A DNA stretch of 64,000 bases from Candidatus Avelusimicrobium vaccinum. Its GTDB lineage: Bacteria; Elusimicrobiota; Elusimicrobia; Elusimicrobiales; Elusimicrobiaceae. A program made the translations under genes and the position numbers. Shown here piece by piece: positions 2,347-50,175 of this stretch. The DNA lies in contig CADBIY010000005.1 in assembly GCA_902794895.1 (NCBI GenBank), positions 1 to 64,000 of the forward strand, read 5' to 3'. Under the pieces are notes generated by a model. The model did no database searches and had not been told where the DNA came from. It worked only from the letters and a program-made list of their open reading frames with translations. Position 1 is the stretch's first letter. Each line of letters starts with the position of its first letter.

Positions 2347-3576
2347 ATGAACGGAAAACAAATCTACGACGTAATTATCGTAGGAGCAGGGGCCAGCGGC
2401 ATGTTGTGCGCGTTGGAATGCGCACGCCGGGGAAAACAAGTACTTTTAATCGAAAAAGAACCCATCCCCGGAAGAAAAATTTTAGCCAGCGGAAACGGAC
2501 GATGTAATTTAACTAACCGCCATGTTCGTCCGGCGTATTATCATGGAGATCCGGTATTACTTACCAAAGTCTTTGCCCAATTTTCTTTCGAAAACTGCCG
2601 GAATTATTTTGAAACACTGGGTGTAGTATTAACGGAAGAAAATCAAGGAAGATTTTTTCCGGCGACCGGAAAATCAACTGCAGTTGTAGAACCCCTAAAA
2701 ATTGCTTTGCAGGAAACAGGAGCCCAACTTTTACTTGGTGAAGAGGTAATCCGAATACGGCATAAACAAGATTTTACGGTAACCACCAAATCCGGGAAAA
2801 ACTTTTCCGCACATTATTTAGTACTTGCCTGCGGATCTTGTGCTTATCCGCAACTCAGCGGCACGCAAAGCGGATATATGCTGGCTAAGGAATTGGGCCT
2901 AACCGTCAATCCGCCAAAACCTGCATTAAGCGCCTTATGTATTAAAGAAAAAGCCCTTTCCCGATTAGCAGGCATTCGGAGTCAAGTCCTTTTACAAGTA
3001 TGGAAAAATGGGCAAGCAATTGATCAAGCGGAAGGAGAAGTTTTATTTACTAATTATGGCATCAGCGGCCCGGCCGCGCTGAATGTAAGCAGCAGCATAT
3101 CGCAAGAACTTGTCCATGGTAATGTGCCCATTACACTGAATTTTTTTCCGGCAATACATCCCTTCCAACCTTTTTTGGAAAACAGGTTGCATCAATTTGC
3201 AACCCGCAAGCCGAAAGATTTTTTAGCCGGCTTGCTACACGAAAATATAGCGAACTTGCTTATTGATTTTGTAGGTTTACGCAAAAACCTCCCCATGCAG
3301 CAACAACTTCCGCAAGCAATTCAAAAAATAGGGAACACCCTTACCCAGTGGCCCCTATCTGTAATTAGTTTGCGCCCTTGGAGCGAAAGCATGGTAGCCT
3401 GTGGGGGTGTAAAAACCAGCGAAATAAACTATAATACTTTTGAATCACTCCGCTGCAAAAAACTTTACATTACCGGAGAATTGTTAGATGTAAATGGAAA
3501 AAGCGGCGGTTTTAATTTACATTTTGCGTGGGCGAGCGGACTTATTGCAGCCCGGCATTTATCCGCAAAGGAGTAA
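2347..3576 (+). CDS. NAD(P)/FAD-dependent oxidoreductase, HI0933/BaiN-like flavoprotein family
   Basis: N-terminal Rossmann motif DVIIVGAGASGMLCA right after MNGKQIY. Length (~410 aa) and the C-terminal GELLDVNGKSGGFNL segment are typical of the family. Start moved from the track's 2284 to 2347 to fit the dinucleotide-binding fold and the adjacent -10 box. Confidence 0.8.
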   Translation: MNGKQIYDVIIVGAGASGMLCALECARRGKQVLLIEKEPIPGRKILASGNGRCNLTNRHVRPAYYHGDPVLLTKVFAQFSFENCRNYFETLGVVLTEENQGRFFPATGKSTAVVEPLKIALQETGAQLLLGEEVIRIRHKQDFTVTTKSGKNFSAHYLVLACGSCAYPQLSGTQSGYMLAKELGLTVNPPKPALSALCIKEKALSRLAGIRSQVLLQVWKNGQAIDQAEGEVLFTNYGISGPAALNVSSSISQELVHGNVPITLNFFPAIHPFQPFLENRLHQFATRKPKDFLAGLLHENIANLLIDFVGLRKNLPMQQQLPQAIQKIGNTLTQWPLSVISLRPWSESMVACGGVKTSEINYNTFESLRCKKLYITGELLDVNGKSGGFNLHFAWASGLIAARHLSAKE

Positions 3577-3578
3577 CT

Positions 3579-4250
3579 ATGGCAGAAATTATTCGTAAAA
3601 CAACAAGTTCACATGAAAAAAATCAAGTAGGATTTGTACGCACTTATTACGTGAACGGCAAAGAAGTTTATCAGGAAACGTTGAATAAAAATTTAGATAT
3701 TGAAAACCATTCCGGTGCGCTTCCTGACGGAACAGTTAAAGAATTTTTTGAAAACGGTAAAATTTATTTTGAATGCCAAGTAAAAAACGGTTTGCGTAAC
3801 GGATTATGCAAAATTTATTTTGATAACGGTAAAGTAAGTATTGAAAAATTTTATGAAAACGGCTTGTTACAGGGAAAAGCACGCGTCTTTCATCCAACCG
3901 GGAAATTATATAAAGAATTTTCGTATGTAGATGACGTACAAGACGGAAAGCAAATTAAATATTATCCGGACGGCAAGGTATTGGAAACGGCTGAATTTCG
4001 CAAAGGATATTTAAACGGGGTATGCAAAGTTTACACCCCCGACGGAGATTTACGTTCCGAATGCAACTACAAAAATGACAAATTGGTAGGTGATAAAATT
4101 ATTTATCATCCCAACGGAACTATCGCCTTAATTTCCCCCCACAAAGACGGAAAACCGAACGGAGTCACCAAAAAATTCAGCGACACCGGAGACTTAATGG
4201 AAGAATGGTTTTTTGAAGATGGAATCTTAACCTTAAAAAAAGCAAGATAG
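3579..4250 (+). CDS. MORN-variant (YwqK-like) repeat protein
   Basis: Repeated Y/F-x-NGK/DGK units (YYVNGKEVY, FENGKIYFE, YFDNGKVS, YYPDGKVL, YHPNGTI). The ATG at 3579 is preceded by AAAGGAG. The track's upstream extension overlaps the previous gene. Confidence 0.7.
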   Translation: MAEIIRKTTSSHEKNQVGFVRTYYVNGKEVYQETLNKNLDIENHSGALPDGTVKEFFENGKIYFECQVKNGLRNGLCKIYFDNGKVSIEKFYENGLLQGKARVFHPTGKLYKEFSYVDDVQDGKQIKYYPDGKVLETAEFRKGYLNGVCKVYTPDGDLRSECNYKNDKLVGDKIIYHPNGTIALISPHKDGKPNGVTKKFSDTGDLMEEWFFEDGILTLKKAR

Positions 4251-4269: not shown

Positions 4270-4568
4270 CCCCCCGCAAAGCGGGGGGTTCTCACAATAC
4301 GGGTATAAAGCCCTTGCCTACCAACCTAGGGCTTTGCTCCTTCCTAACGACCTATCACACTCGACTTTGCACACTTTCTTCTTGCTATTTTTAAACAAAG
4401 CGTCATTCCAAACTTGATTTGGAATCTTCCGCTTTTGTCGTTGCTGTTTCGTAACTACCACCACATTCGTCGAAGATCCTGAATCAAGTTCAGGATGACT
4501 TGATGATTTATTTTAATCGCTTAAATCTTAACGGAACCCCAGCCTAGCTGGGGGTTTTCACAATACAC
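4270..4568 (+). repeat. Intergenic structured repeat, copy A (core 4402-4499)
   Basis: Shares a near-identical ~140-nt block with 5361-5500 and 26800-26945. Bounded by the GC hairpin CCCCCCGCAAAGCGGGGGG + TTCTCACAATAC on the left and CCCCAGCCTAGCTGGGG + GTTTTCACAATAC on the right. Confidence 0.85.
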
Positions 4569-4623: not shown

Positions 4624-5121
4624 TTAAAAAGGATACCAAGTTGTACCGCCTTCCACTCTTGTCTGCGGCGAATTGGTATCGGCTCCCACTTTCGTACAGA
4701 CCGCTGCTGATTGAAAAGAATAACAATATCTTCTTCCATCATCGGTGAAAACCAATGTATAGTCTCCAAACGGACTATTTCTGCGATACGCCGAAACATA
4801 ATTTGCGTTCCACATCATGCCATTGTAAATAACCCAATTGTTCGTTGCAAAGGAACTAGCGTGTCCTGTAGCAGAAGTACCATCCTCTGTAATAAAATCT
4901 AACGACAATTCTTCCCAATTATAATCACTGCGCTCCTCCATCTTTGCTATTTGAGCAGCTTTCATAAGACTTTGCAGCATACCCCAAGCTTCCGCTTGGC
5001 GGCTTTTTTCTACCGCTTTTTGATATTGCGGAAGTGCTACGCTCGCTAAAATACCGATAATTAACACCACTACAAGCAATTCTATCAAGGTAAAACCGCT
5101 TAAATTTTGATTTGTTTTCAT
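4624..5121 (-). CDS. Prepilin-type N-terminal cleavage/methylation domain protein (type IV pilin / pseudopilin-like)
   Basis: N-terminus MKTNQNLSG|[24 protein letters not shown] carries the G/FTLIE prepilin peptidase motif with Glu at +5. SD AAAGGAGGG upstream. Confidence 0.85.
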
Positions 5122-5224: not shown

Positions 5225-5563
5225 CCCCCTGCAAAGCAGAGGTTTTTTCACAATACGGGTAAAACCGAAGCAAAGCGGAGTCCTGAAAATGTCTTTATTT
5301 TCCCCTAAGGGCTTAGACCCTTCTCAACGACCTGCCACGCTCAACTTCCCATGCTTGCTTCTTGCTGTTTTTAAACAAAGCGTCATTCCAAACTTGATTT
5401 GGAATCTTCCGCTTTTGCTGTTACTGTTTCGTAACTACCACAACATACGCGTTGAAGATCCTGAATCAAGTTCAGGATGACTTTATAATTTATCTTAACA
5501 ACCTGTTTATCGGTAGAACCTTAACGGAACCCCTACGCCTGGCTGGAGGGTTTCCCATACAAA
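5225..5563 (+). repeat. Intergenic structured repeat, copy B (core 5382-5481)
   Basis: Same orientation and architecture as copy A: left hairpin + TTTTTTCACAATACGGGTA, conserved core, right CTTAACGGAACCCC...GGGTTTCCCATAC. About 90% identity to copy A across the core block, estimated by eye. Confidence 0.85.
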
Positions 5564-5564
5564 C

Positions 5565-5595
5565 AAAAAGGGACCTCACAAAAGGTCCCTTTTTT
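5565..5595. terminator. Bidirectional intrinsic terminator
   Basis: AAAAA-GGGACCT-CACAAA-AGGTCCC-TTTTTT, immediately 3' of the minus-strand gene ending at 5613. Confidence 0.7.
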
Positions 5596-5612
5596 ATAAC
5601 AGCAACTTAAAT

Positions 5613-5879
5613 TTATTCTTCGTAATAATCACGCACAAAGAACACGATATAAGCCAGCCAGGTTCCTCCAAAAAATAACGAAAAACAGTACGAGAACCAC
5701 CATATTTTATCCAACGGGTTATAATCGGTTAATAAAGAATCCAGTAACAGAATACTTAAAATATAGGTAAGATAGATCCATATAATAGCCACAACGGCTT
5801 TCAATGCCGTATCTAATGTTCCCAAAATAATTCCTTTTTCTTGAAAAGGCTTAGCCAGAAATGTAATCAATCTTTGCAT
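5613..5879 (-). CDS. Small integral membrane protein, hypothetical
   Basis: 88-aa ORF with two or three hydrophobic spans (AVVAIIWIYLTYILSILLL, WWFSYCFSLFFGGTWLAYIVFFV). Confidence 0.55.
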   Translation of the reverse strand: MQRLITFLAKPFQEKGIILGTLDTALKAVVAIIWIYLTYILSILLLDSLLTDYNPLDKIWWFSYCFSLFFGGTWLAYIVFFVRDYYEE

Positions 5880-16330: not shown

Positions 16331-16358
16331 AAACCCCGGCCATCAACCGGGGTTTTTT
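16331..16358. terminator. Bidirectional terminator between pyrG and pbpC
   Basis: AAAAA-CCCCGG-CCATCAA-CCGGGG-TTTTTT. Confidence 0.7.
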
Positions 16359-18468
16359 AAGGAAGTACCTCAAATGCAGTTTGGACCGTTTGCCCGCCAC
16401 AGGTTCCTGTGAGTGTAAACTTTCCCGGTTCAAGCGGCCAAAAGACCTCGCACGTAGTAGCCGGATAACGTACTCCGTTTAAATGCCAGGTACATTTATT
16501 TTCCGCGCATGACATATTCCATTTCACACGCTGCGAACGGGACGGAACTGCCGGATCCCATTTATAAATATCTCCTTGAGTTGGATTGGTAATAGCGGGG
16601 CGTTCCGTTTTTTGCAGCAGATGTTTTCCGTCGCATACGGAAGGCAGATGCGCAATAGAAAATAATTCCTCTTGCGTATGCTTGCAGGAAGGGCCGGCTA
16701 ATAAACCGCTACGTACACATACCGGTTTTCGAACGGTGGCATCCGGTTCTTCAAATGAAGAGGACGGATATTTTTCTTGCAAATAAATAGCCACATCATG
16801 CAAAATAGGTCCGGCCCCGGTAATGCCGGATACTTTTTGCATGGAACTGGCATCAAAGTTCCCCACCCACACGCCAATTGTCCAACGCGGTGTATAGCCA
16901 AAAGCAAAATTGTCCTTATAATCTTTCGACGTACCCGTTTTAGCAGCCATTTCAAACGGAACTGCCAACGGAGAGTTGAGACCGAACGCAGCCGAACGTG
17001 CCTGATTATCCTTTAAAATATCCGTAATTAAAAAGGCCGACTGTTCCGTTAAAATACGTTTCTCCGGGCCGCCGATTTGTACCCGCGGTTCTTGTGTTAA
17101 TAGCACCGGTTTATACAAACCGCCGCGTGCTAACGATGCATACGCATTGGTCAAATCCAATAATCGGACTTCGCCGTTTCCCAAGGCTAATCCTAATCCG
17201 TAAAAATCAGCCTCCCGTTGCAAACTGGTAAGCCCAGCTTGCCGTAACAGGGCCAGTAAATTACCGGTTCCTACCCTCTCCGCCGCCTTCACAGCCGGAA
17301 TATTATACGAACAGGCTAAAGACCGGCGAACCGATACCAAACCGTGGAACTGTTCATCATAATTGCGGGGCCGGAATCCCCCTTCAAAAAAGGTATCCTC
17401 GTCCATCAGTATAGAACCTGGAGATAAGATTCCCTTTTCAAAAGCAAGACCGTATACAAAAGGTTTTAACGCGGAACCCGGCTGGCGCAGTGCCCGCGCT
17501 CCGTCCACTTGCCCGTTATGCGCCGTATCCTGAAAATCACCGGACCCGACATAAGCCAAAACGGCTCCTGTTTGGTTTTCTATTACAACAACGGCCGCAT
17601 TGGTTACGTTTTGTTCCGCCAAGTTTTTTAACTGATTTTTAACAATTTGTTCGGCCTGTAATTGGACCTCACGATCTATGGTAGAAAACACTTCCCGGGA
17701 GTTTAGCGGCAACTGTAATTGGAGTAATCTAGTAAAATGAGGTGCTTCAAACGGACGAACACGCGCCTGCAAGGTAATTTTTTCTTTTCGGGCGCGAGAC
17801 CAACTTTCCTCATCTAAAAATCCTTCTTCTTTCATTCGCTTTAACACGTATTGCTGACGTTTGATAGCCCGGTTAAAAAAATGGAGCGGATTATATTGTG
17901 TAGGGGATTGAACCAACCCCATCAAAAATGCGGCCTGAGCCGCTGAAAGGTCCCTCGCGTTTACCCCGAAGTAAAACAGAGAAGCAGCCTCCACCCCTTG
18001 TAATAAATTTCCAAATTCTACGATATTGAGGTAAGTTTCTAAAATTTCTTCTTTTGTTTGTTGTTGTTCTAAATTGCGCGCCTGCAAAGCCTCTTTTAGT
18101 TTGCCCCCCCAATTTTTAGGATGCGGATGATGCGCCCGGACAACTTGTTGCGTGATTGTAGAGGCCCCCGACACGATTCGCTGTGTGGAGGCATTTTGCC
18201 AGGCCGCACGAAAGATGGCTTTGAGATCAATTCCTTCGTGAGAAAAGAAACGTTTATCCTCTGCAGATACTGCCGCCGCTAACAGCCAAGGGGACATTTG
18301 CGCTAAAGGCAGCGGACGGGCATATGTTTGATTGGAAGATAGAAATCCCCGCACCGGCGCTCCATTCCGATCATAAATTTGTAAGGAAGGCTGCAACGTC
18401 CATTCTTCCCCGTTTGCAAGCAAACAGGGAAGAATGAACAAACCGATGAAGGCAATTTTCAATCTCAT
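16357..18468 (-). CDS. pbpC: Penicillin-binding protein 1C (bifunctional GT51 transglycosylase / transpeptidase)
   Basis: GT51 motifs EDKRFFSHEGID and ITQQV. Transpeptidase motifs SALKPF, SYN and KTGTS. A C-terminal PBP1C-type domain is present. The start overlaps the A2M stop (ATGA). Confidence 0.85.
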   Translation of the reverse strand: MRLKIAFIGLFILPCLLANGEEWTLQPSLQIYDRNGAPVRGFLSSNQTYARPLPLAQMSPWLLAAAVSAEDKRFFSHEGIDLKAIFRAAWQNASTQRIVSGASTITQQVVRAHHPHPKNWGGKLKEALQARNLEQQQTKEEILETYLNIVEFGNLLQGVEAASLFYFGVNARDLSAAQAAFLMGLVQSPTQYNPLHFFNRAIKRQQYVLKRMKEEGFLDEESWSRARKEKITLQARVRPFEAPHFTRLLQLQLPLNSREVFSTIDREVQLQAEQIVKNQLKNLAEQNVTNAAVVVIENQTGAVLAYVGSGDFQDTAHNGQVDGARALRQPGSALKPFVYGLAFEKGILSPGSILMDEDTFFEGGFRPRNYDEQFHGLVSVRRSLACSYNIPAVKAAERVGTGNLLALLRQAGLTSLQREADFYGLGLALGNGEVRLLDLTNAYASLARGGLYKPVLLTQEPRVQIGGPEKRILTEQSAFLITDILKDNQARSAAFGLNSPLAVPFEMAAKTGTSKDYKDNFAFGYTPRWTIGVWVGNFDASSMQKVSGITGAGPILHDVAIYLQEKYPSSSFEEPDATVRKPVCVRSGLLAGPSCKHTQEELFSIAHLPSVCDGKHLLQKTERPAITNPTQGDIYKWDPAVPSRSQRVKWNMSCAENKCTWHLNGVRYPATTCEVFWPLEPGKFTLTGTCGGQTVQTAFEVLP

Positions 18469-21400
18469 TGAATGGTTAATGATGCCGTGGTATTACGCCC
18501 AAATACCGACGGATCATACATTTCACTGACCCAGGCACAGGGCCACGCAAATTCTCCGGCCGCCAATGCACTTACCGCATACGAATACGTGTAAGTACCC
18601 GCTGGCAAATAATCTGCAAACGCAGCGACATGTCCATCATATTTTTCTGCATGGGTAAAGTACGAAGCAGCATTGGCGTCGGATAAAGTATGTTGGAGTT
18701 GCCCGGACTCAGTTGCTAAAGACGGATTTACAATTTCTAATCCGGCGGGGACATAATCTTCCAGTACCACAAAGTGACGCGGGGCAGATGTCCGTACGGT
18801 AAGCGTAATTCGGTACCGTTCTCCGGCGTGTACGTGCTCAACAGGTTCCCCCGCCAGGGTAAGCAGTTGACGAGATACTTCAAAACCCGCTTGGATAGGA
18901 TGATCATAATGTTCCGGTGCATATACTTGGGCGAGCGAATAATACAAGGTACCGGCCCCTTTTTTAGCAAACACAAGGCGTGCTTCCGTGGATTGCGGAT
19001 AAATTTTTGCAAACGGAACAGTCTGGCTTTCGGCAGATGCATGACGTCCTTTAAAGGCAGCCGTCTGCCACACTTGTTCCCCTTGGCTGACTTGTGCTGT
19101 AAAATCCGGCTCAACCGATTCCGCCTGCTTATAGTAGGCTCCTAATGCACGAAGCACCACCGCGTTGGATTGCGTAGAGGGCCAATATCCCTGGGCACTG
19201 AGTTGTGTTAAAAGCCAAGATACACTTTGATAGGCATGTTCAAACGGTTGTTTCGTTTCCAACAAAGCATCCAACGCTAAAGCAGTGGTAGTTACGTCAT
19301 CTACAGGTAACCATTCCAAAGAAGAAGGCGTGCTAAAATACACGGAAGTGGGTGTATAAGTCGCCCGATTCAACAATTGTTGCGCCAATGCGGTTTGTAA
19401 ATTTGTGGCCCGTTTAGACACTTTCGCTTCTTTCAATAAATAAGCAACTGCCGCTAACGGCAAGGAATTTCTTTTGGCATACAAATTATTAAATAACGCA
19501 TCGGTATTTTGTCCATACAAAGCAAGCACATACGCCCCGTAAGCACGGGCAATTTCTGTTTCTTGTAACGAGTATGTATATGCCCGTCGCGCCTGCGCAT
19601 TAAAGGCTTCAGTAAGCCATGTTTGCGCCTTTTTTAAATTTGTTTCCGCAACGTGGTATCCCTGCTGCTTTGCCAAGTACGCTACTTCCAGGGCATAAGC
19701 GGTTGCATAAGGATCTGCTAAAGACGTATTTTTCCAATATCCAAAACCTCCGCCGGGAGTTTGATATAATGGCATTTGCTCCAGCACCTGTTGTGCTTTT
19801 TGCTTTAAATCGGCCACGTCTCCCAACTCAAAATCCCGAATTAAGTTTTCTGCCGTAATTACCGGTATTGATTTTGACAACTGCTGTTCCAAACAATCAA
19901 ACGGATACGTAAGTAAATATGTAAGCGCACCTTTTACTTGCAAGAGTGCCGTAGATGCCAGGGATAACTCTACTTGGTTTTTAGCCAGCGGACTGACAGA
20001 CCCCGGTTTATCAATCAACTCTTCCCGACGTGAATCTGTAGATCCGTATACCGCGAGTGTTTGTAATTTCTCAACCGGTTCTATGGGAAGTTTTGCCAGC
20101 ATACCGTCGGTTTCTTTCCCTTTTCCGGCAACCCGGAAAGCAATTTCCGCCTGACCAGGCCGCAAGGCCTTACAGTTCCAAGTTACTTCCTTGGCTTGCC
20201 CTAAAGGAACATAAACCGTTTGCGTGGTTTCGCCGGTTAGTTCCACCGTGCCGGCCGATTGGGCAGAAACCGTTAAAATACCTTTTTTGTCTTCGTAGTT
20301 ATAAACGATGGCTCCGCACCGGAATTGATCACCACTACGCGCCAACCGAGGCAAATTAGCACTAATCATAAGCGGTTTAGATACCCGGATAAACGTTTCC
20401 GCCGCCCCAAATTCATCAGCCCGTGCAGCAACGGCCATGATACGGAATTTCGTCAAATTGTCCGGCAATTTAAAATGCACTTCACCGCGCCCTTTGGCAT
20501 TGGTAAGCACCGTCGCATTAAAATACGGAACAAACGAAAAATGGCTGCGTAAATCAACACCGCCGAGTTTAGATTGCGAAGAACCGCCTCCGCCGCGGTT
20601 TTCCCCTTTTTCCCCAAAATTACGTTGTCCGATTACGTACGAACGGTTATCGGCCGTAAATACAGAAAGAGGTACCGCGCGGTAAAACACACTAAATAAA
20701 TCCGGTGTTTTATAATTGGTAAGCGCTAGCATTCCTTCATCTACAACCATTACAGTTACTTCCGCCGACACAGGTTTCCCGGCGGCTTTGGTGGTCAGTT
20801 GAAGGGTTACTTCATCCCCGGGGCGGAAGGCCGTTTGATTAGGCTTTAAGGATACCTGAATTTTCTTTTTTTCCGGGGCAACATTTAACGATACATAGCC
20901 GGTTCTACCCTGTGGTTTTCCCAAATCCAGGTCTTTATCGTTCACCGGTTCGGCAGAACGGCCGCGTACGAGTGTAACACCCACATAGACATTAGGCAAG
21001 TAATTATCCTTTATTGGAACCTCAATCGTACTATTTCCTTTTTTAACCAAAGTTACCCACGCATCTAAAATACCTTCCCGTTCCACGGTTACCAAAGCAA
21101 ACGCTTGTTCATACGGGGATTGTACCTGAATACGCGCTTTTTGACCCGGCTTATAGGAGTTTTTATCTTGTTTTAACGTTAATAAATCATCTTCATTCTG
21201 CCGCCAATAGATTTCCCCTTCACCGGAAACATATACATCAAAACCACCTAAAGCAGTGCGACCGTTACCGTCTTTAGCAGCGAATGTAATCTGATAATTT
21301 CCACCTTCCTGCGGTGTAAATTCAAATTTTCCGTCTTTCGCCGCGGATACTTCAAACGACTGCGCCGGAAGTTCAGTTTCCTGTTTTTCGCTGATCCATT

Positions 21401-24116
21401 CCAAGCGGCCGGAAACACCCGTTTTACGAACGCTGTACCATTGAATTTTGCGAATCGTGGCCACTATCTGAGCGGCAACACGTTTACCGTCCGGCGTAAT
21501 GGCAATTACTTCGGCCTGTACAGGTTGCCCGGCTTGTGCACGGTCCGTAAGCAGTTTCGTACCCAGATAGAATGATGCCGGATGTAACCGGACGGACGTA
21601 CGGGCAAATAAATCTTGCTTGGCGGGCGATTGTACCCCAACTTCCGCAAAAATATCCGTCGGCATTGTTACAGCCGGTAATGGTGCCGCAAAAGAGAGCG
21701 TACCTTGATCATCTGTTTTTCCCGTACCGCTGGCAATCTGTTTGCCGTTTTCCTGATATTCATTTTCGCGTAAGAAATATGGAATAAACCGGTAATCTTC
21801 AAAACCTTTCGGTTCAAACCAGGCCATTTCCCGGTGCAAAGACCACTTGGCGGCTGCTTTCGCCAACGGGGCCCCGAAATTATATAAGGCAGCCGCCGAA
21901 AAAGAAGCCGTTTCTCCCCCTTGATAATTTTGCTTGCTTGGGTGTAGTGTAATTTCAAAATCAGCCTGTTTGACGGCTTCCACCCGGACGGACAAATACG
22001 TAGCAACCGGATCACTATCCCCCTTCACTTGCGGCACAAACGAAAGTTCCCAATCGCCGGTGCGAGCCGTTTGCGGAATTTGAAATTCCGTATTAAAACT
22101 GCCTTGCCGGGAAAGCGTAATTGGACGGGAAGCGATTTCTTCGCCGTGGCTATCCGTTAACGTTAATTTACCGGTTAAACCTTCCGGAACGGTCCACCCG
22201 TTTACCTCCAAACTCCGTGTAACCCCTTTCACGTACATGGTTTCTCCGGGGCGGTAAATACCGCGTTCGGTAAATAATTCCGTGCGTAGCGTATCCTGTT
22301 GCGGGCTGTAAGAATAAGGCACATTAAAACGCCATAATTCCATACCGTCATTGAGTTCGTTACTCAGAAAAGCATCCCCACCTTCACTGGAAATAAAAGC
22401 ATAAACCGCAGGCTGTCCCCACGACGGTTTTTTCACTCCCAATTTTTCCCAACCGGGTGCCAAGGCAATCCCCTGTTCATTTGTGATACCGCGCCAAAGT
22501 ACTTTATTTGAAGAGTCACGCAATTCCACTTCTTTGCCGGGCAACGGTTCTCCCGTTTTTAAGGACGTTGTCCATAGCAACGTAGATTGGAACGAAGTTT
22601 TCAGCGTAACCCCTACGTCCGTAATATTACTGGTGGCACTCACCCAACAATGTTTGTCATCTCCTCGGCGGGGCAAATTAACTTGAGTAAAAATAATACT
22701 GTCTTGTGCAGTGGGTTGAAAACGGGATAAATCAAAAAAAGTTTTTAACGTTTTATCTAGGATTTTGGTAAAGGTATAATTTCCCTCATACGTAGGATGT
22801 TGCAACCCATGCGGCTCACAATAACGGGTTTCTTCTTGTAAGAACGGGACGTAATTGGCTTTATTGAACCGGGCGGCGCGCACCGGCAACGAAGACACAT
22901 TCATCACTTCAATCGGTAAGCGCGGCGGCAAATAACTTTCCAACACGCCAAAACCGCCGGAAAATTCCGTAGCCGGGCAATACCCGGTATTTTCTATGGT
23001 AAACGAATAATCTTGCCCGAGCCGATTACCATAAATATCACGCAATTCTTTGGAAATAGTTACTTGGACCGGTTTTTTAGCAGGGAGATTTAAAAAAGAA
23101 AGCGGCGTAAAGAAGAAGGCCGTTCCTTGTTTCAGGTCTTCTTCCGTAAGCCCGTAATTTTTTTGATAGTTAGCGCGTTGGCCTTCACTTATTTTTTCTC
23201 CGGCGGGGATGACCACTTCACTTCCTAAATAATCCGTTTCGCGTTCCGCAAGCGGACGCAACACATTTTCCGGCGACACTTTCATAGAGGCCACCAATTC
23301 GCGCAACCGCACCGGGGAAGAAAACCGGATCCCCGGATTAAAGGGCAAACATCCTTGGGAAACTACCCCTTGCACGGCTAACAGCGGATAGGTAAAAAAT
23401 TCGGTGGTATATGCCGATTTCATCCCCAGCGGGCCGGAAGACGACAAAAGCCCCTTTAAAAAAGTAAGGGTGTACCGTTGGCCCGGCCGGAGCGTTTGCA
23501 ACGGATGTAACACAGCTTGCTGATTTTTAGGAGTATATTTAAAATCTTTTTCCCATTCGGCCTCCGTCAATGCGCGCGAAGAAAGCGGAATATGATTTCC
23601 CTCTTCATCTGCCAAAATAGCATAATTTGTCAGTTTTTCCGCCTCAACAGGTAATGTAAATTCCACATAAAACGTAGGAGTTAAGTTAATCCAACGTTCC
23701 TGGTTACGGGGCAACACATTACGCACTTGCGGAGTTTGGGTAGAAAATGTAAACGTATACGGGGATGTTAATTTTTGGCCGGACACACGGGAAGTGAAAC
23801 CTTTGCGAATCGTAACGGTAAACTGCGTGGCTTGCGGCCAGTTTTCAGCAGGTTCAAATTGCAAGGTCTGCGTTCCGCTGTAACGGCACGTTCCCGCCAC
23901 GTTAGGCGTAATGGTCAGCGGGCAATTGCCGGATGCAAACTGGGTGGCTTCCGCCAAAGCAGTAACCGGCTGGTTAAAGGTAACGGTAACGGCTTGACGG
24001 CCGGAAGCGCTGTCCAAGCCGCGCGGAGCCGCCGATAACACCCTGAGCGGAGCGGCAAAAACAACTCCCGCTAAACAACAAAGTAAACTCGTTAAAGCAA
24101 TTTGTCTTTTAAACAT
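18465..24116 (-). CDS. Bacterial alpha-2-macroglobulin family protein (YfhM-like) with thioester motif
   Basis: 1883 aa with an N-terminal signal peptide. Thioester CLEQ sits in YPFDCLEQQLSK. It lies immediately upstream of, and is coupled to, pbpC as in the known yfhM-pbpC arrangement. Confidence 0.85.
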   Translation of the reverse strand: MFKRQIALTSLLCCLAGVVFAAPLRVLSAAPRGLDSASGRQAVTVTFNQPVTALAEATQFASGNCPLTITPNVAGTCRYSGTQTLQFEPAENWPQATQFTVTIRKGFTSRVSGQKLTSPYTFTFSTQTPQVRNVLPRNQERWINLTPTFYVEFTLPVEAEKLTNYAILADEEGNHIPLSSRALTEAEWEKDFKYTPKNQQAVLHPLQTLRPGQRYTLTFLKGLLSSSGPLGMKSAYTTEFFTYPLLAVQGVVSQGCLPFNPGIRFSSPVRLRELVASMKVSPENVLRPLAERETDYLGSEVVIPAGEKISEGQRANYQKNYGLTEEDLKQGTAFFFTPLSFLNLPAKKPVQVTISKELRDIYGNRLGQDYSFTIENTGYCPATEFSGGFGVLESYLPPRLPIEVMNVSSLPVRAARFNKANYVPFLQEETRYCEPHGLQHPTYEGNYTFTKILDKTLKTFFDLSRFQPTAQDSIIFTQVNLPRRGDDKHCWVSATSNITDVGVTLKTSFQSTLLWTTSLKTGEPLPGKEVELRDSSNKVLWRGITNEQGIALAPGWEKLGVKKPSWGQPAVYAFISSEGGDAFLSNELNDGMELWRFNVPYSYSPQQDTLRTELFTERGIYRPGETMYVKGVTRSLEVNGWTVPEGLTGKLTLTDSHGEEIASRPITLSRQGSFNTEFQIPQTARTGDWELSFVPQVKGDSDPVATYLSVRVEAVKQADFEITLHPSKQNYQGGETASFSAAALYNFGAPLAKAAAKWSLHREMAWFEPKGFEDYRFIPYFLRENEYQENGKQIASGTGKTDDQGTLSFAAPLPAVTMPTDIFAEVGVQSPAKQDLFARTSVRLHPASFYLGTKLLTDRAQAGQPVQAEVIAITPDGKRVAAQIVATIRKIQWYSVRKTGVSGRLEWISEKQETELPAQSFEVSAAKDGKFEFTPQEGGNYQITFAAKDGNGRTALGGFDVYVSGEGEIYWRQNEDDLLTLKQDKNSYKPGQKARIQVQSPYEQAFALVTVEREGILDAWVTLVKKGNSTIEVPIKDNYLPNVYVGVTLVRGRSAEPVNDKDLDLGKPQGRTGYVSLNVAPEKKKIQVSLKPNQTAFRPGDEVTLQLTTKAAGKPVSAEVTVMVVDEGMLALTNYKTPDLFSVFYRAVPLSVFTADNRSYVIGQRNFGEKGENRGGGGSSQSKLGGVDLRSHFSFVPYFNATVLTNAKGRGEVHFKLPDNLTKFRIMAVAARADEFGAAETFIRVSKPLMISANLPRLARSGDQFRCGAIVYNYEDKKGILTVSAQSAGTVELTGETTQTVYVPLGQAKEVTWNCKALRPGQAEIAFRVAGKGKETDGMLAKLPIEPVEKLQTLAVYGSTDSRREELIDKPGSVSPLAKNQVELSLASTALLQVKGALTYLLTYPFDCLEQQLSKSIPVITAENLIRDFELGDVADLKQKAQQVLEQMPLYQTPGGGFGYWKNTSLADPYATAYALEVAYLAKQQGYHVAETNLKKAQTWLTEAFNAQARRAYTYSLQETEIARAYGAYVLALYGQNTDALFNNLYAKRNSLPLAAVAYLLKEAKVSKRATNLQTALAQQLLNRATYTPTSVYFSTPSSLEWLPVDDVTTTALALDALLETKQPFEHAYQSVSWLLTQLSAQGYWPSTQSNAVVLRALGAYYKQAESVEPDFTAQVSQGEQVWQTAAFKGRHASAESQTVPFAKIYPQSTEARLVFAKKGAGTLYYSLAQVYAPEHYDHPIQAGFEVSRQLLTLAGEPVEHVHAGERYRITLTVRTSAPRHFVVLEDYVPAGLEIVNPSLATESGQLQHTLSDANAASYFTHAEKYDGHVAAFADYLPAGTYTYSYAVSALAAGEFAWPCAWVSEMYDPSVFGRNTTASLTIQ

Positions 24117-25350: not shown

Positions 25351-26712
25351 ATGCCTAGTGTTACCAAAAACCCATTTAAAGATAAAAAACTTTCTGCTTT
25401 GCTGATTAAGTTTTCCGCACCGGCCGTAGCCGGTATGTTTGTCAACGCGTTATACAATATTATTTCCCGTATCTATGTAGGGCAGGATGTGGGAGCCGAC
25501 GGGTTAGCCGGCATTACTATTTTATTTCCGCTGGGAATGATTTACATGGGTTTTAGCGCACTAATCGGGGTAGGCAGCAATGCCCTGTTTTCCATCCGGC
25601 TCGGCGAAAAAAGAACCCTGGAAGCACACCGTATTTTGGGAAACGGGTTTGTGATGCTTTCGTTAGTTTCCACGGCACTTACGCTGCTTGCTTATTTATT
25701 TTTAGATCCTTTTCTCTCGCTCCTAGGGGCCGATCCGCAAATTCTTCCCTATGCAAAAGATTATGCCTCTGTTGTATTGCCCGGATATATGTTATTTGGT
25801 ATCGGAGCCGGCATGAACCATTTTATCCGCTCCTCCGGTCGCCCCAAAACAGCGATGGCAACCCAATTTATCGGGGCCTTTATCAACCTTGCACTCGGCC
25901 CCGTTTTTATTTTTGGGTTGCATTGGGGAATCCGCGGAGCGGCGGCAGCCACTGTCTGCGGGCAGTTAGTTTCCTTTGCGTGGGTCATGTTATTCTTTAC
26001 CAGTAAACGCAGTTTTTACCGGTTGCGCCTTAAATATTGTGCACTTAAAAAACATATTGTTTGGGGTAGCATGGCCATTGGATTTTCCCAATTTGCTTTT
26101 CAACTGGCTTCCAGTTTTTTAAATGTGATTCTCAACCATGCTTTATTACGTTATGGCGGGAATTTGGCTATTTCAGCAGTCGGGATTGCGGTAAGCGTAA
26201 ATACCTTGATTGTGATGCCGCTTTTTGGCATTTCCCAGGGGGCACAGCCGTTAATCGGCTATAATTACGGGGCCCGGAAATTTTCTACCGCCATTCATAC
26301 GCTTAAAATGGCTATACGTTGGGGAACGGTCATTACCACCGTCGGATTTGTATTCATTGAACTTTTTGCCGTCCAAGTGGCTTCCGTTTTTAATGCCCAG
26401 GATACGGCTTTAATTACCCTATCGGCCCGGGTACTGCGGATTTTTAATATTTTATTACCGATTATCGCTTTACAAGTAATGGCAACCAGTTTCTTCCAAG
26501 CCATTAACCAACCTTTAAAAGCGGCTTTTTTGAGTTTATCCCGCCAAGTATTATTGGTTTTACCCTTGGTCCTTATTTTGCCTCTATTTTTGGGATTAGA
26601 CGGCGTATTTTTAGCCCCGGTCGTGGCGGATGCCATTTCCACGATAATAGCGGTATACCTCTTGCAACGTTTTTTTGTGCAACACGGTCAAACGCTTTGG
26701 TTCAAAAAATAG
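25351..26712 (+). CDS. MATE family efflux transporter
   Basis: 453 aa, ~12 hydrophobic spans, and an N-terminal KFSAPAVAGMFVNALYNIISRIYVGQ segment typical of MATE. Confidence 0.85.
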   Translation: MPSVTKNPFKDKKLSALLIKFSAPAVAGMFVNALYNIISRIYVGQDVGADGLAGITILFPLGMIYMGFSALIGVGSNALFSIRLGEKRTLEAHRILGNGFVMLSLVSTALTLLAYLFLDPFLSLLGADPQILPYAKDYASVVLPGYMLFGIGAGMNHFIRSSGRPKTAMATQFIGAFINLALGPVFIFGLHWGIRGAAAATVCGQLVSFAWVMLFFTSKRSFYRLRLKYCALKKHIVWGSMAIGFSQFAFQLASSFLNVILNHALLRYGGNLAISAVGIAVSVNTLIVMPLFGISQGAQPLIGYNYGARKFSTAIHTLKMAIRWGTVITTVGFVFIELFAVQVASVFNAQDTALITLSARVLRIFNILLPIIALQVMATSFFQAINQPLKAAFLSLSRQVLLVLPLVLILPLFLGLDGVFLAPVVADAISTIIAVYLLQRFFVQHGQTLWFKK

Positions 26713-26985
26713 ACATCCTCTGCCTACTAGCCTAGGACTTAATCCCTTCTTAACTGCCTGCCACACGCGACTTCCCACATTTTGTGCTTGCTGTTTTGCT
26801 GTTTTGCTGTTTTGCTGTTTTTACACAAATCATCATTCCAAACTTGATTTGGAATCTTCCGCTTTTGCCGTTGCTGTTTCATAACAACCACAACATCCGT
26901 TGAAGATCCTGAATCAAGTTCAGGATGACTTTATGATTTATCTTAACGGCCCCCCCGGCCCAACGCAATGTTTTCTCACAGAATA
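26713..26985 (+). repeat. Intergenic structured repeat, copy C (core 26832-26929), with a TTGCTGTT x4 expansion at 26788-26819
   Basis: Same core and orientation as copies A and B. The right end reads CTTAACGGCCCCCCCGGCC...TTTTCTCACAGAATAA. Lies between convergent MATE and nadB. Confidence 0.85.
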
Positions 26986-27034: not shown

Positions 27035-28582
27035 TTACTTATCGGTTAAATAATGGCACCCCACCGAACGCTTATTTTTTAAAGCCGCATAGGTAATCAG
27101 CAACGCGGTTTGGGTTCCGTTGCGCAAGTCCAACAGTTCCTGGCATAACGCAGTTCCTTTATAGAAAAGATCAATCTCGTTATGCAAGTGGCGTAAGATT
27201 TTTTCCGCGCGCCCCAAATGTTTCGCACTGCGAATGAGCCCCACATAATTCCACATGGTACTGCGCAAGGTGGATAAATCCTGCTTAATTAAATTTAAGT
27301 CCGGTTCTCCAACAGGCAATACCCATTCCTTGGGTTGCGGGATGTAAAATGTTTCCCGCGCAATATCCTGTGCATCCGCTTGTGCACACAAATACCCCAT
27401 GCCAACTGCTTCTAATAATGAAGTACTGGCTAAACGGTTAGCACCATGGTAACCGGTACAAGCCGTTTCCCCAATAGCATTTAAATGCAAGATATTGGTG
27501 CGCCCGTGCGGAGTCGCAAAAATACCTCCGCAAAAATAATGGGCCGCCGGAACTACCGGCACCGGTTGTTTGGTAAGATCAAATCCTTCTTCCAAACATT
27601 TTTTGTAAATGGCCGGAAAACGCTCCTTCGTTTCTTGTGCCGGGCGGTGCGAAATATCTAAATAGACGCAATCATGCGATGTCTCCAACCGTTCCTGCTC
27701 AATGGCCCGGGCCACAATGTCACGTGGCGCCAAATCTTTCAGGGCATGATACCGCGGCATAAAGGCTTCCCCGCGCACGTTACGCAAAACAGCCCCTTCT
27801 CCGCGCAGGGCTTCACTTAATAAAAAACTTTTCCCCTTTGCAAATACCGTCGGATGGAATTGCACAAATTCCATATTCATCACCCGGGCACCCACCCGGT
27901 AAGCCATGGCAATTCCATGCCCGTAAGCATGCGCCGCATTGGTAGTATGCCGGTAAATCTGCCCGACTCCACCCGTAGCTAAAATTGTTTTCTTTGCGGT
28001 AACGGCAAATACTTCCTTCGTTTTATTATCCAACACATACGCACCAAATACCGTAAGCGGATAATAACGGTCTATTAAATGAGGAGAACTATGCGATAAG
28101 GTTAATAAATCAATCGCCGAAGCATATTCATGCACCGTAATGAGCGGATTCTTAGCTATCGCCGCCTGCAAGGCCGACAACATTGCATGCCCCGTAGTGT
28201 CTTTAGAATAAATAATCCTGTTTTTGCGGTGTGCCCCTTCCCGCGTAAAACGCAGTTTCTGTTTTTCGTCCCGGTCAAAATTCACGTGAATATCGTTTAG
28301 AAAAATTTCTTGTACTGCTTGGCAACCGGCTTCCGATAAAGTACGTACTGCCGGTTCATTACATAAGCCGGCGGTTGCCATTTTAACATCTGCTAATAAA
28401 TCGTCCATTTGCAAGTTGGGTTCGTACACAATCCCCCCTTGCGCCAAATCACTATTTGCCGTAGGCAAATCCCCACAACAAAGCAGATAGGTATGCAGTC
28501 CTTTTTTAGCCGCTTGATGTGCATATACGCAGCCGGCAATTCCGGCTCCGATCACTAAACAATCCGTATGAATTACTTTCAT
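27035..28582 (-). CDS. nadB: L-aspartate oxidase
   Basis: DCLVIGAGIAG FAD motif. Succinate dehydrogenase/fumarate reductase flavoprotein-like core of ~515 aa. The start is placed at MKVIHTD (28582) because TATAAT lies 6 nt upstream. Confidence 0.9.
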   Translation of the reverse strand: MKVIHTDCLVIGAGIAGCVYAHQAAKKGLHTYLLCCGDLPTANSDLAQGGIVYEPNLQMDDLLADVKMATAGLCNEPAVRTLSEAGCQAVQEIFLNDIHVNFDRDEKQKLRFTREGAHRKNRIIYSKDTTGHAMLSALQAAIAKNPLITVHEYASAIDLLTLSHSSPHLIDRYYPLTVFGAYVLDNKTKEVFAVTAKKTILATGGVGQIYRHTTNAAHAYGHGIAMAYRVGARVMNMEFVQFHPTVFAKGKSFLLSEALRGEGAVLRNVRGEAFMPRYHALKDLAPRDIVARAIEQERLETSHDCVYLDISHRPAQETKERFPAIYKKCLEEGFDLTKQPVPVVPAAHYFCGGIFATPHGRTNILHLNAIGETACTGYHGANRLASTSLLEAVGMGYLCAQADAQDIARETFYIPQPKEWVLPVGEPDLNLIKQDLSTLRSTMWNYVGLIRSAKHLGRAEKILRHLHNEIDLFYKGTALCQELLDLRNGTQTALLITYAALKNKRSVGCHYLTDK

Positions 28583-28588
28583 ATACAT

Positions 28589-39615: not shown

Positions 39616-39688
39616 GGGCGTGTAGCTCAGCTGGGAGAGCGCCTCGTTCGCAACGAGGAGGTCGTCGGTTCGATCCCGATCACGTCCA
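39616..39688 (+). tRNA. tRNA-Ala (anticodon CGC)
   Basis: Hand-folded: GGGCGTG TA GCTC AGCTGGGA GAGC G CCTCG TTCGCAA CGAGG AGGTC GTCGG TTCGATC CCGAT CACGTCC A. The G3:U70 alanine identity pair is present. CCA is not encoded. Confidence 0.9.
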
Positions 39689-40040
39689 AAATTTAGAAAC
39701 CCTACACAAGTAGGGTTTTTTAATTTTATGCTTGAGCGAACCGAAAGACCGACGAAGTTGCATTCACGAGGTGCGTTTCGCTTCCGAAGTGAAGTAACGA
39801 GGAGGTTGTTGTCGCCGTCTGCAAGACTCCCGATCACGTCCAAAATTTAGAAACCCTACACAAGTAGGGTTTTTTAATTTTAGTCTAAGCATACAGAAAG
39901 ACCAACGAAGTTGCGAACCCGGAGGCGCGGTTGTTCTGCCTGCGAAGTGAAGCAACGAGGAGGGCTCTCGCCCGTCCGGCAAGGACTCCCGATCACGTCC
40001 AAAATTTAAAAGTCCTGCGTAAAGCGGGGCTTTTTTATTT
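39674..40040 (+). repeat. tRNA-linked tandem repeat: the 3' end of tRNA-Ala plus its terminator is repeated three times (period 154 and 159 nt)
   Basis: The 55-nt unit TCCCGATCACGTCCAAAATTTAGAAACCCTACACAAGTAGGGTTTTTTAATTTTA occurs at 39674-39728 and identically at 39828-39882. A third copy starts at 39987 with a diverged terminator. The ~100-nt spacers are related to each other and retain AACGAGGAGG from the tRNA anticodon-stem region. Confidence 0.85.
39698..39721 (+). terminator. Intrinsic terminator directly after tRNA-Ala
   Basis: AACCCTAC-ACAA-GTAGGGTT-TTTT. Confidence 0.75.
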
Positions 40041-40089
40041 TCTTCTAAAAAGATAAAATAAATATATATCTATTTTTACGAGGACTTCT

Positions 40090-49131: not shown

Positions 49132-50175
49132 ATGAGTAATGTATCAATGAAAGCCATGTTGGAAGCCGGTGTGCACTTTGGCCACCAAACTTCCCGCTGG
49201 AATCCGAAAATGGGACGTTTTATCTTTGGAGAAAGAAACGGCGTCCATATCTTAGACTTACAAAAAACCGCTAAAGAACTTAAAAAAGCCTGCGCTTTTA
49301 TTAAAGAAGAAAGCAAAAAAGGTGCAAAATTTTTGTTCGTCGGTACTAAAAAGCAAGCCCAAGAAGCCATCCAAGCCGAAGCAGCCCGCTGCGGTGCTTA
49401 TTGCATTCACGAAAAATGGCTCGGTGGCACGTTAACTAACTTCCAAACCGTTAAAAAATCCGTAGAACGGATGAACGAATTGGAAAAATGGGAAGCCTCC
49501 GGCGTTTTTAAAGCAATTTCTAAAAAAGAAGCCAGCCGCTTAACCAAAGAACTCGTGCGCTTACAAAAATTACTGGGTGGCATCCGCGATATGAAAGTAC
49601 TCCCGGATGTGGTCTTTGTCATTGACCCGGTAGATACTGCCGGTGCCGTGCGCGAATCTTACACGTTAGGAATCCCGGTTGTTGCGGTTTGTGATACCAA
49701 TGCCGACCCCGATATGATCACCGTCCCGGTTCCCGGTAACGACGATGCAGCCCGCTCTATCAAATTATTCTGCGCTGCAATTGCAGATTCTATCTTAGAA
49801 GGGCGCGAAGAAGCCAACCCGGCTCCTGCCGCCACGGAAGATAAACCGGCTGAAAACCCGGTAATGGCTCAAGCCTTTGAATCGGCTATGCTCGCCGCTG
49901 AAAAAGAAGAAGCCGCTCAGGAAGAAACGGTAGCCGAAAAAGAAGTAGTAGCGGAAGAAGCCCCGGTAGAAGAAGTACAACCCGCAGAAGAAAAACCGGC
50001 TCCGGCTGAAGAAGCGGAAGAAAAACCGGCTAAAAAAACTGCCGCTAAAAAAACAACCGCTAAAAAAACCACTACTAAAAAAACGACGACTGCTAAAAAA
50101 ACAACCGCTAAAAAAGCCACTGCCAAAACAAAAAAAGCGGAAGTAAAAGAAGAAGCCGCCGAAGAAGCAAAATAA
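49132..50175 (+). CDS. rpsB: 30S ribosomal protein S2 with a ~120-aa low-complexity C-terminal extension
   Basis: Conserved core [19 protein letters not shown]...; after ~residue 225 comes an acidic E/A/P segment and then KKT(T)A repeats. Confidence 0.9.

Follow-up and report, generated by a model that had tools for sequence, protein, structure and literature searches.

Three copies of an intergenic element of ~300 nt, here called A, B and C, lie within the window, by which we mean the whole 64,000-nt stretch analysed (positions 1 to 64,000 of contig CADBIY010000005.1, from the Elusimicrobiota member Candidatus Avelusimicrobium vaccinum). The core of each copy is very probably a head-to-head heterodimer of two hairpins of the CGTC-tagged repetitive extragenic palindrome (REP) class, also named Ssn-related motifs (SRMs) and resembling the NTS of Neisseria, and not a new structured RNA. 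Each strand of the core would present one motif in its active orientation, consisting of a GTC tag, an 8-bp stem that starts with AT, a 5-nt loop and a C, and the two motifs would face outward from a spacer of ~48 nt. The dimer can be viewed as the putative gene-less form, comparable to miniature transposable elements with inverted repeats (MITEs) or to REPINs, of the unit motif - ssn - motif, where ssn is a ~90-aa single-domain GIY-YIG gene. The class itself is already described and partly characterised biochemically; what is new is an AT-rich arm variant missed by the published SRM pattern, together with Elusimicrobiota as a host phylum. On this reading an elaborate-looking four-way-junction RNA is the geometry to be expected of two inverted, tagged hairpin repeats of single-stranded DNA (ssDNA), and the pairing of Ssn nucleases with hairpin repeats is widened to the AT-rich arm variant, to Elusimicrobiota and to several other phyla.

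An earlier description of this DNA, made from its letters alone (the sequence-only reading), reported three intergenic units on the same strand, with invariant arms and with a variable spacer and flanks, and these points are borne out, at a level far above chance. The arm sequences TCCAAACTTGATTTGGAATCTTC (at 4407, 5387 and 26837) and GAAGATCCTGAATCAAGTTCAGGATGAC (at 4472, 5454 and 26902) each have three exact matches in the window and 0 in 100 dinucleotide-preserving shuffles. The three units, all on the same strand, can be aligned over ~300 nt, with substitutions and indels located in spacer and flanks. The list of open reading frames (ORFs) places all three in intergenic DNA: the genes on either side of A and of C are convergent, and those on either side of B are both on the minus strand. 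For the exact arm architecture, 6 arms were observed in the window, against 0.8 expected in shuffles. The helices that had been listed, the complementary loops CTTGA and TCAAG and the possible extension of each hairpin to 8 bp can be read directly from the sequence.

Class of the repeat

CGTC-tagged REPs were defined by Di Nocera, De Gregorio and Rocco (2013, BMC Genomics 14:522; PMC3733652). They have an unpaired CGTC tag (TGTC and CCTC are tolerated) at one end of a palindrome, whose stem is 8-9 bp with complementary A-T pairs in positions 1 and 2, whose loop is 4-5 nt and of few types, and which is followed by a short unpaired tail, mostly CCA. Most occur as head-to-head dimers with the tags outside, heterodimers being common, and the spacer of 20-100 bp often has complementary ends. 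They sit between convergent or tandem genes, sometimes inside genes, in five phyla, and the class has been equated with dRS3 of Neisseria and RPE-4 and RPE-6 of Rickettsia (PMC3733652).

The cores in the window share this architecture. Arm 1 starts with CGTC in A (4401-4404) and B (5381-5384) and with CATC in C, while arm 2, read on the minus strand, starts with aGTC. The stems ATTCCAAA/TTTGGAAT and ATCCTGAA/TTCAGGAT enclose 5-nt loops, and covariation backs all 8 pairs. In all three copies the tags lie outside, the two stems are unlike, and the spacer, of 48-50 nt, ends in ATCTTC and GAAGAT. Common to the class and the element are the (C)GTC tag outside the stem, the 8-bp AT-starting stem, the 5-nt loop of a few recurrent types and, less certainly, the short tail, and also the outward-tagged heterodimers, the spacers with complementary ends, the sites between convergent or tandem genes and occasional intragenic copies. 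By stem and loop lengths the arms may belong to CGTC-2 among the families CGTC-1 to CGTC-4. They differ from the described class in three ways: Elusimicrobiota is absent from the five phyla of PMC3733652; the stems in the window are AT-rich (TCCAAA, CCTGAA); and the tail is CTT in the window's lineage, not CCA. The conserved C is followed by TT in the window as in Elusimicrobiaceae, and by CA in the Rhodospirillales copies, which do have the CCA tail. The sequence-only reading had recognised no named repeat class here; this one has been on record since 2013 (PMC3733652). The loop also holds a GANTC site, which is why the CcrM/CIR repeats of Caulobacter came into consideration; a literature search on these yielded only two reviews.

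The arms are also close to the NTS of Neisseria (CGTCATTCCCGCGMAVGCGGGAATCYRG). The protein that binds this motif, SsnA, is small and has a single domain, GIY-YIG; it recognises the motif as ssDNA only, neither duplex nor RNA being bound (Chenal et al. 2025, Nat Commun 16:2388; PMC11893778). It cleaves a few nucleotides upstream. Binding depends above all on the C that immediately follows the palindrome, and cleavage on the 3 bases that precede it (PMC11893778). An SRM lies near 71% of ssn homologues, and on both sides in 42%, and the arrangement NTS-ssnA-NTS resembles that of an insertion sequence (PMC11893778). What the window arms have in common with the NTS (CGTCAT-TCCCGC-loop-GCGGGA-AT-C) is the tag, the AT, the trailing C and the length of the stem, the first three being positions shown to count for cleavage and binding. 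The loop of the window arms is 5 nt (CTTGA/TCAAG) as opposed to 4 nt. Both GTC and the C directly after the stem (column 33) are conserved in at least 90% of the 105 homologues described below.

Relatives in other genomes

One genome per species was scanned with the arm-pair pattern CAAACTTGATTTG-N45-75-GAATCAAGTTC, which matched at least 109 stretches spanning at least five phyla. Among the matches listed are Elusimicrobiaceae; Rhodospirillales, Thalassospiraceae and Rickettsiales; Sulfurimonas and other Campylobacterota; Mesonia, Kordia, Prevotella and other Bacteroidota; and Salinibacter and Salinivenus. Many matches lie within ~100 nt of a contig end, as expected of a multi-copy repeat. 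The named Elusimicrobiaceae metagenome-assembled genomes (MAGs) have a near-identical repeat subfamily and a pilin-rich gene content. The plasmid and phage collections gave no match to the core, and a literature search found no literal sequence strings of the element.

In Sulfurimonas and some metagenome loci (L024, L039, L108, L085 and L143) arms or half-elements stand in tandem arrays, for example of repeated ...TTCTGAATCAAGTTCAGAATGAC units, an arrangement that resembles the 'clustered' REPs of Neisseria and Wolbachia.

Pairing and strand

Two pairing models were counted in 105 distinct copies, trimmed to the arms and aligned without gaps. The search pattern itself fixes both loops, together with the inner 4 pairs of hairpin 1 and the inner 3 of hairpin 2, and these are hence uninformative. 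The model of two local 8-bp hairpins with a short outer and inner helix is 92% paired, and a rod model, in which arm pairs with arm, 82.7%. Within the two hairpins pairing reaches 98.0% and 97.9%, and compensatory changes, for which the sequence-only reading had suggested looking among further copies in related genomes, are frequent. Pair 14-30 of hairpin 1 is UA in 44 copies, CG in 43 and GC in 10; in hairpin 2, pair 61-81 is AU in 75 and GC in 21, 62-80 is UA in 81 and CG in 20, and 63-79 is CG in 84, GC in 10 and UA in 7. The rod model breaks at exactly the discriminating pairs, with 30-63 unpaired in 68 of the 105 copies, 14-79 in 31 and 12-81 in 24. Pairing is kept within each arm, and the stems of the two arms have evolved apart. 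Covariation of the outer (GTC/GAC) and inner helices is no evidence of pairing, because inverted copies of one tagged motif are complementary by construction.

The sequence-only reading had folded the core into a four-way junction. This stands as a possible fold, but folding predicts others: with RNA parameters each strand forms a long, imperfect rod, and with DNA parameters every copy forms two independent 8-bp hairpins. The complementary loops, the 'closing' and 'inner' helices and the 'four-way junction' itself all result from the presence of one tagged motif in two inverted copies.

RNA folding energies do lie far below those of shuffles on both strands (z -4.7 and -5.5), as would suit a structured small RNA (sRNA) or 5' untranslated element with a four-way junction, a loop-loop contact and a minus-strand transcript ending at the left GC hairpin; the fold predicted for that RNA is, however, the rod and not the junction. 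Mismatches within the hairpins are equally rare whether G:T, a wobble on the plus strand, or A:C, a wobble on the minus strand (7 vs 11 in hairpin 1, 6 vs 5 in hairpin 2). There is thus no excess of G:U-compatible mismatches for either strand, and nothing favours an RNA of either. Strict Watson-Crick pairing is the need of a DNA hairpin, or of a motif used on both strands. At the gathering threshold Rfam reports tRNAs only, in the window and in 15 related loci, and at relaxed thresholds its best match is STnc490, with 30.5 bits against a gathering threshold of 56, so that no Rfam family supports an sRNA.

Two further observations favour the sRNA: on the minus strand the left hairpins of A and B look like terminators and, in Elusimicrobiaceae relatives, the element in its minus-strand sense lies directly 5' of pilin-like genes with the ATG of ATGAC in frame. 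In Rhodospirillales, however, the copies lie between convergent genes, 11-40 nt from the stop codons, and elsewhere they occur in either orientation. A promoter-like site was not found upstream on the minus strand, the small ORF that follows ATGAC changes mostly non-synonymously between copies, and the characterised nuclease of the repeat class does not bind RNA (PMC11893778). We consider such an RNA very unlikely, and the kissing loops proposed for it in the sequence-only reading lose their force since loop complementarity is automatic.

A conserved small protein, encoded by a 20-28-aa minus-strand ORF from the ATG of ATGAC, was rejected on account of the same mainly non-synonymous changes.

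Arms flanking GIY-YIG genes

The ORFs within 3 kb of 119 copies were clustered all against all. Their recurrent neighbours are type-IV-pilin-like genes, in Elusimicrobiaceae only, and a gene for a ~90-aa GIY-YIG protein. The latter is present in seven loci (Elusimicrobium, Mesonia, a Rhodospirillales MAG and others), in six of them 7-110 nt from the element. The proteins have PF01541 as sole domain and 91-104 aa; the nearest solved structure is 1ZG2 (UPF0213), a weak match (E 5e-4). The Mesonia locus L072 has the order GTCAT-gctGAACTTGATTCagc-ATC..., 20 nt, ORF, 4 nt, ...GAT-cccaaatcaagtccggg-ATGAC, such that the gene takes the place of the variable spacer, and the ~100-nt elements are the same arms joined directly. 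GIY-YIG genes are flanked by window-type arms in L066, L072, L076, L085, L087, L112 and L131. Two of these were retrieved by protein homology alone: L131 carries the exact window arm GATCCTGAATCAAGTTCAGGATGAC, and in L112 (Thermodesulfovibrionales) the gene lies between arms that have the CTTGA/TCAAG loops of the window and other stems.

An independent test started from protein homology, not DNA. The first search yielded 1621 homologues, most of them on short contigs. A set of 80 metagenome loci was then selected with a protein pattern alone and scanned for GTC, an 8-bp stem with at most 1 mismatch, a 3-7-nt loop and C. An arm lies within 350 nt of the GIY-YIG gene in 64 of the 80 loci, and on both sides in 49, with 3.03 arms per kb close to the gene and 0.09 per kb at greater distance. 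Usually one arm lies 45-135 nt upstream with its tag outward and an inverted arm 2-125 nt downstream. Some loci of the homologues have GTCAT-cctgaa-N5-ttcagg-ATC upstream and GAT-gctgaa-N5-ttcagc-ATGAC downstream. In every subfamily the loop upstream is the reverse complement of the loop downstream (CTTGA/TCAAG, CTTGT/ACAAG, GAAA/TTTC, GAAG/CTTC and GTAG/CTAC), which explains the complementary loops of the window without any loop-loop contact. A sample picked by protein homology alone thus confirms independently that GIY-YIG genes lie between such arms.

Some of these loci carry GTCATTCCCGCGAAAGCGGGAATC, a canonical NTS-type arm. The published SRM pattern is matched in 23 of the 80 loci, as against 64 with arms of the same architecture, so the pattern is narrower than the family. 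The putative link of the associated proteins to the Ssn family rests on homologues with 52-69% identity to them that sit between canonical NTS-type arms. Arms on both sides of single-domain ~90-aa GIY-YIG genes are then a further likeness of the window element's relatives to the NTS/SRM system, from which the window copies differ in having extra genome-specific flanks and no ssn gene in the window. In the literature, a search that combined GIY-YIG with palindromic or intergenic repeats led mostly to papers on fungal mitochondria, and one that combined it with MITEs led mostly to general MITE papers, none of which links the two.

Two of the GIY-YIG loci bear on a gene pair of the window. In L113 (1405-1879) and L115 (564-1067), which are from other bacteria, an ssn-type GIY-YIG gene with arms lies between an alpha-2-macroglobulin gene and a gene for penicillin-binding protein 1c; the same two genes in the window (18465-24116 and 16357-18468) overlap, with no insertion.

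Hairpin repeats with an enzyme gene of their own are familiar from REPINs and the 'REPtrons' of REP-associated tyrosine transposases (RAYTs), in which GTAG-tagged REP doublets are mobilised by IS200/IS605-like tyrosine transposases. The logic is shared: the hairpin repeats are recognised in ssDNA form and mostly come as inverted pairs, and the same repeats flank an enzyme gene present in a single copy; the differences lie in the tag, GTAG there and (C)GTC in the window, and in the enzyme, a Y1 (HUH) transposase there and a GIY-YIG nuclease here. A multi-copy element that breaks assemblies and whose two arms form an imperfect inverted repeat of ~28 bp could also be a classical MITE, with terminal inverted repeats on which a DDE transposase or an IS200/IS605-type (RAYT) tyrosine transposase acts in trans. 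Even the weak STnc490 match might point that way, this family being the IS200 antisense RNA, but its score is far below the gathering threshold. The ORFs within 3 kb of the 119 copies hold no transposase-like cluster, only the pilin-like genes of one genome family and the GIY-YIG genes recurring; no RAYT was found near any copy, and no target-site duplication is visible. The tag is also not the GTAG of RAYT-associated REPs, and Di Nocera et al. sought transposase genes next to CGTC REPs, found none and described the class as one that 'apparently lack[s] a dedicated transposase' (PMC3733652). We judge a transposase-driven MITE of this kind to be most unlikely.

Proposed mechanism

Taking the cores as CGTC-REP heterodimers, we propose that when the DNA becomes single-stranded, in replication, transformation or repair, each arm would fold into a hairpin. 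A nuclease of the Ssn family would bind the hairpin, the tag and the trailing C, and would nick a few nucleotides 5' of the tag, i.e. at both outer borders and on opposite strands. In the organism of the window this would be the work of an Ssn homologue encoded elsewhere, which would nick each dimer at both its outer borders, one on either strand, at times when the DNA there is single-stranded. Recognition as ssDNA would accord with the Watson-Crick pairs, the lack of strand bias in mismatches and the hairpins of the DNA fold. The window copies themselves are non-autonomous, and most likely passive and slowly decaying. The suggestion in the sequence-only reading of a MITE-like element or an ssDNA or cruciform site was essentially right, with arms of the CGTC-REP/SRM type that flank GIY-YIG genes elsewhere. 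If an Elusimicrobiaceae nuclease does cut beside this motif, it would have a new specificity within a family proposed as ssDNA tools.

Three results weigh against assigning the window copies in this way. The 64-kb window has no ssn or GIY-YIG gene. Neither window arm fits the SRM pattern HGTCWYN(0-2)YYVSBRHN(0-5)WNVSBRGN(0-2)RNCYNB, owing to A/T at stem positions for which the pattern requires G/C. Finally, no empty site and no target duplication were found, and the one related strain that spans the region has both A and B.

The three copies

Copy A (4270-4568, plus strand) lies between the convergent genes 3528-4250 (plus) and 4624-5121 (minus). Its arm 1 (4401-4426, plus), found in the architecture scan and backed by covariation in the 105 homologues, reads CGTC tag, AT, TCCAAA, loop CTTGA, TTTGGA, AT and C, its tag standing 5' when read on the plus strand. 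The spacer (4427-4474), which is the variable part and has the complementary ends ATCTTC...GAAGAT, separates it from arm 2 (4475-4500), which on the minus strand is aGTC-AT-CCTGAA-CTTGA-TTCAGG-AT-C. The left flank holds a GC hairpin (4270-4288) and TTCTCACAATAC (together 4270-4300), terminator-like on the minus strand, and the right flank a GC hairpin (4537-4553) and TTTTCACAATAC (4555-4566; together 4537-4566). Both flanks are lineage-specific, and the left one is placed outside the cross-phylum element. In copy A of a strain ~98-99% identical (L202, ~1455, corresponding to window 4422), an uncompensated G-to-T change in hairpin 1 turns TTTGGAAT into TTTGTAAT, which suggests weak constraint on this copy.

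Copy B (5225-5563, plus) lies between the pilin-like gene 4624-5121 (minus) and ORF 5613-5879 (minus), and its spacer has a 2-nt indel relative to A and C. Both its arms were found as exact matches and in the architecture scan: arm 1, CGTCATTCCAAACTTGATTTGGAATC, at 5381-5406 (plus), and arm 2, GTCATCCTGAACTTGATTCAGGATC on the minus strand, at 5457-5482. Several metagenome contigs of related strains end at or beside this copy (starts of L205, L206 and L207, corresponding to window ~5480-5600), consistent with a repeat that breaks short-read assemblies.

Copy C (26713-26985, plus) lies between the convergent genes 25351-26712 (plus) and 27035-28588 (minus). The tag of its arm 1 (26831-26856, plus) is degenerate, CATC in place of CGTC, with the hairpin intact, and a GTC-anchored scan misses this arm; arm 2 (26905-26930, minus), again GTCATCCTGAACTTGATTCAGGATC on the minus strand, is an exact match and was found by the scan. 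In the left flank of C there is a tandem expansion, (GCTGTTTT)x4 at ~26786-26820, which adds 24 nt and which A and B do not have.

To the left of the cores the genome-specific flanks measure ~130 nt and to the right ~70 nt. They contain GC hairpins with TTYTCACAATAC after them, and neither flank has a match in the other 200 loci. The sequence-only reading had A and B bounded on both sides by a GC hairpin with TTYTCACAATAC. This is so for A; the exact motif occurs in the window at 4289, 4555 and 5245 only, and so B is not bounded on both sides, its right boundary being the degenerate TTTCCCATAC. The right-hand hairpin had also been proposed as a plus-strand terminator, but on that strand the terminator scan leaves the right-hand hairpins unflagged; what it flags are the left GC hairpins, 4288-4270 and 5242-5226, on the minus strand.

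The hairpin-plus-TTYTCACAATAC boundaries had suggested ends of IS200/IS605 elements or of omega-RNAs. This idea was dropped because the motif is found in this genome only and there is no TnpA or TnpB gene nearby.

Copies within prepilin leaders

In relatives within the Elusimicrobiaceae the dimer lies on the sense strand within the 5' end of type-IV-pilin-like genes (L006, L011, L013, L015, L017, L019, L020, L023, L026, L038, L041, L063, L064, L070, L071, L073, L074, L079, L086, L089, L094, L098, L102, L105, L106, L111 and others). We considered the 38 distinct Elusimicrobiaceae copies that adjoin a pilin-like gene. In 37 of them the length is 2 mod 3 (86, 89, 92, 95, 98 or 101 nt), as opposed to a split of 32/27/19 across the three length classes among other copies; the spacers are, however, rich in triplet repeats (AAC, GAC, AGC), and slippage alone could give 3-nt length steps. 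In 33 of the 38 the terminal ATGAC has its ATG in frame with M-T-x-L-F-N-N-G-G|FTLIELL, and in 35 the frame is open through the whole element, back to N-termini such as MKNKN.... The reading frames suggest that the dimer is translated within an extended prepilin leader, which prepilin peptidase would remove. Di Nocera et al. warn that N-terminal 'intragenic' repeats may be annotation artefacts (PMC3733652). The three copies of the window do not lie within prepilin leaders.

The in-frame copies would be a new example of palindromic repeats tolerated inside genes. Rickettsia palindromic elements were reportedly found by Ogata et al. in 2000 to be inserted in frame in protein-coding genes; the likeness is that, in Elusimicrobiaceae relatives, the dimer lies inside an ORF, the prepilin leader, and varies in length by 3-nt steps. 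The window copies differ from those elements in being intergenic and, in the case of B, in having the frame-breaking 2-nt indel.

Carried in the leaders of dozens of paralogues, the dimer might serve as a shared ssDNA nick site at which Ssn would promote conversion or shuffling of pilin genes, the window units being by-products; the G4 (guanine quadruplex)-dependent variation of pilE/pilS in Neisseria is a comparison case. We regard this role as unlikely.

A further reading takes the window units as pseudogene fragments derived from the 5' regions of pilin genes, which duplication of pilin-like paralogues would have brought along, and not as independent insertions. Some 20 nt on either side of the window cores resemble the sequence that surrounds the pilin-leader copies of relatives (ATGACGCTTTGTTTAAAAATAGC vs ATGACGTCTTTATTTAATAACGG), and a pilin-like gene has copy B 260 nt upstream and copy A just downstream of it. 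Copy C, on the other hand, lies between unrelated genes, none of the three cores is followed by a GFTLIELL-coding remnant, and the ~130-nt and ~70-nt flanks are unmatched in the other 200 loci. Such an origin, which we think extremely improbable, concerns the history of the copies and not the nature of the arms, and is compatible with their being CGTC-REP heterodimers.

Other features of the window

A tRNA-Ala(CGC) gene (39616-39688) is followed by two units of ~155 nt, the whole occupying 39616-40041. Each unit ends with the last 15 nt of the tRNA (TCCCGATCACGTCCA) and a terminator hairpin (39828-39882 and 39987-40041), and neither ARAGORN nor Rfam calls these two segments as tRNA. The units may be remnants of integrations at the 3' end of the tRNA gene, or tRNA-linked small transcripts.

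At 50017-50142, within ORF 49132-50175, there is a tandem repeat with a period of 15-18 nt (AAAAAAACNGCYGCTAAA-like), which encodes a lysine/alanine/threonine-rich, histone-H1-like low-complexity tail.

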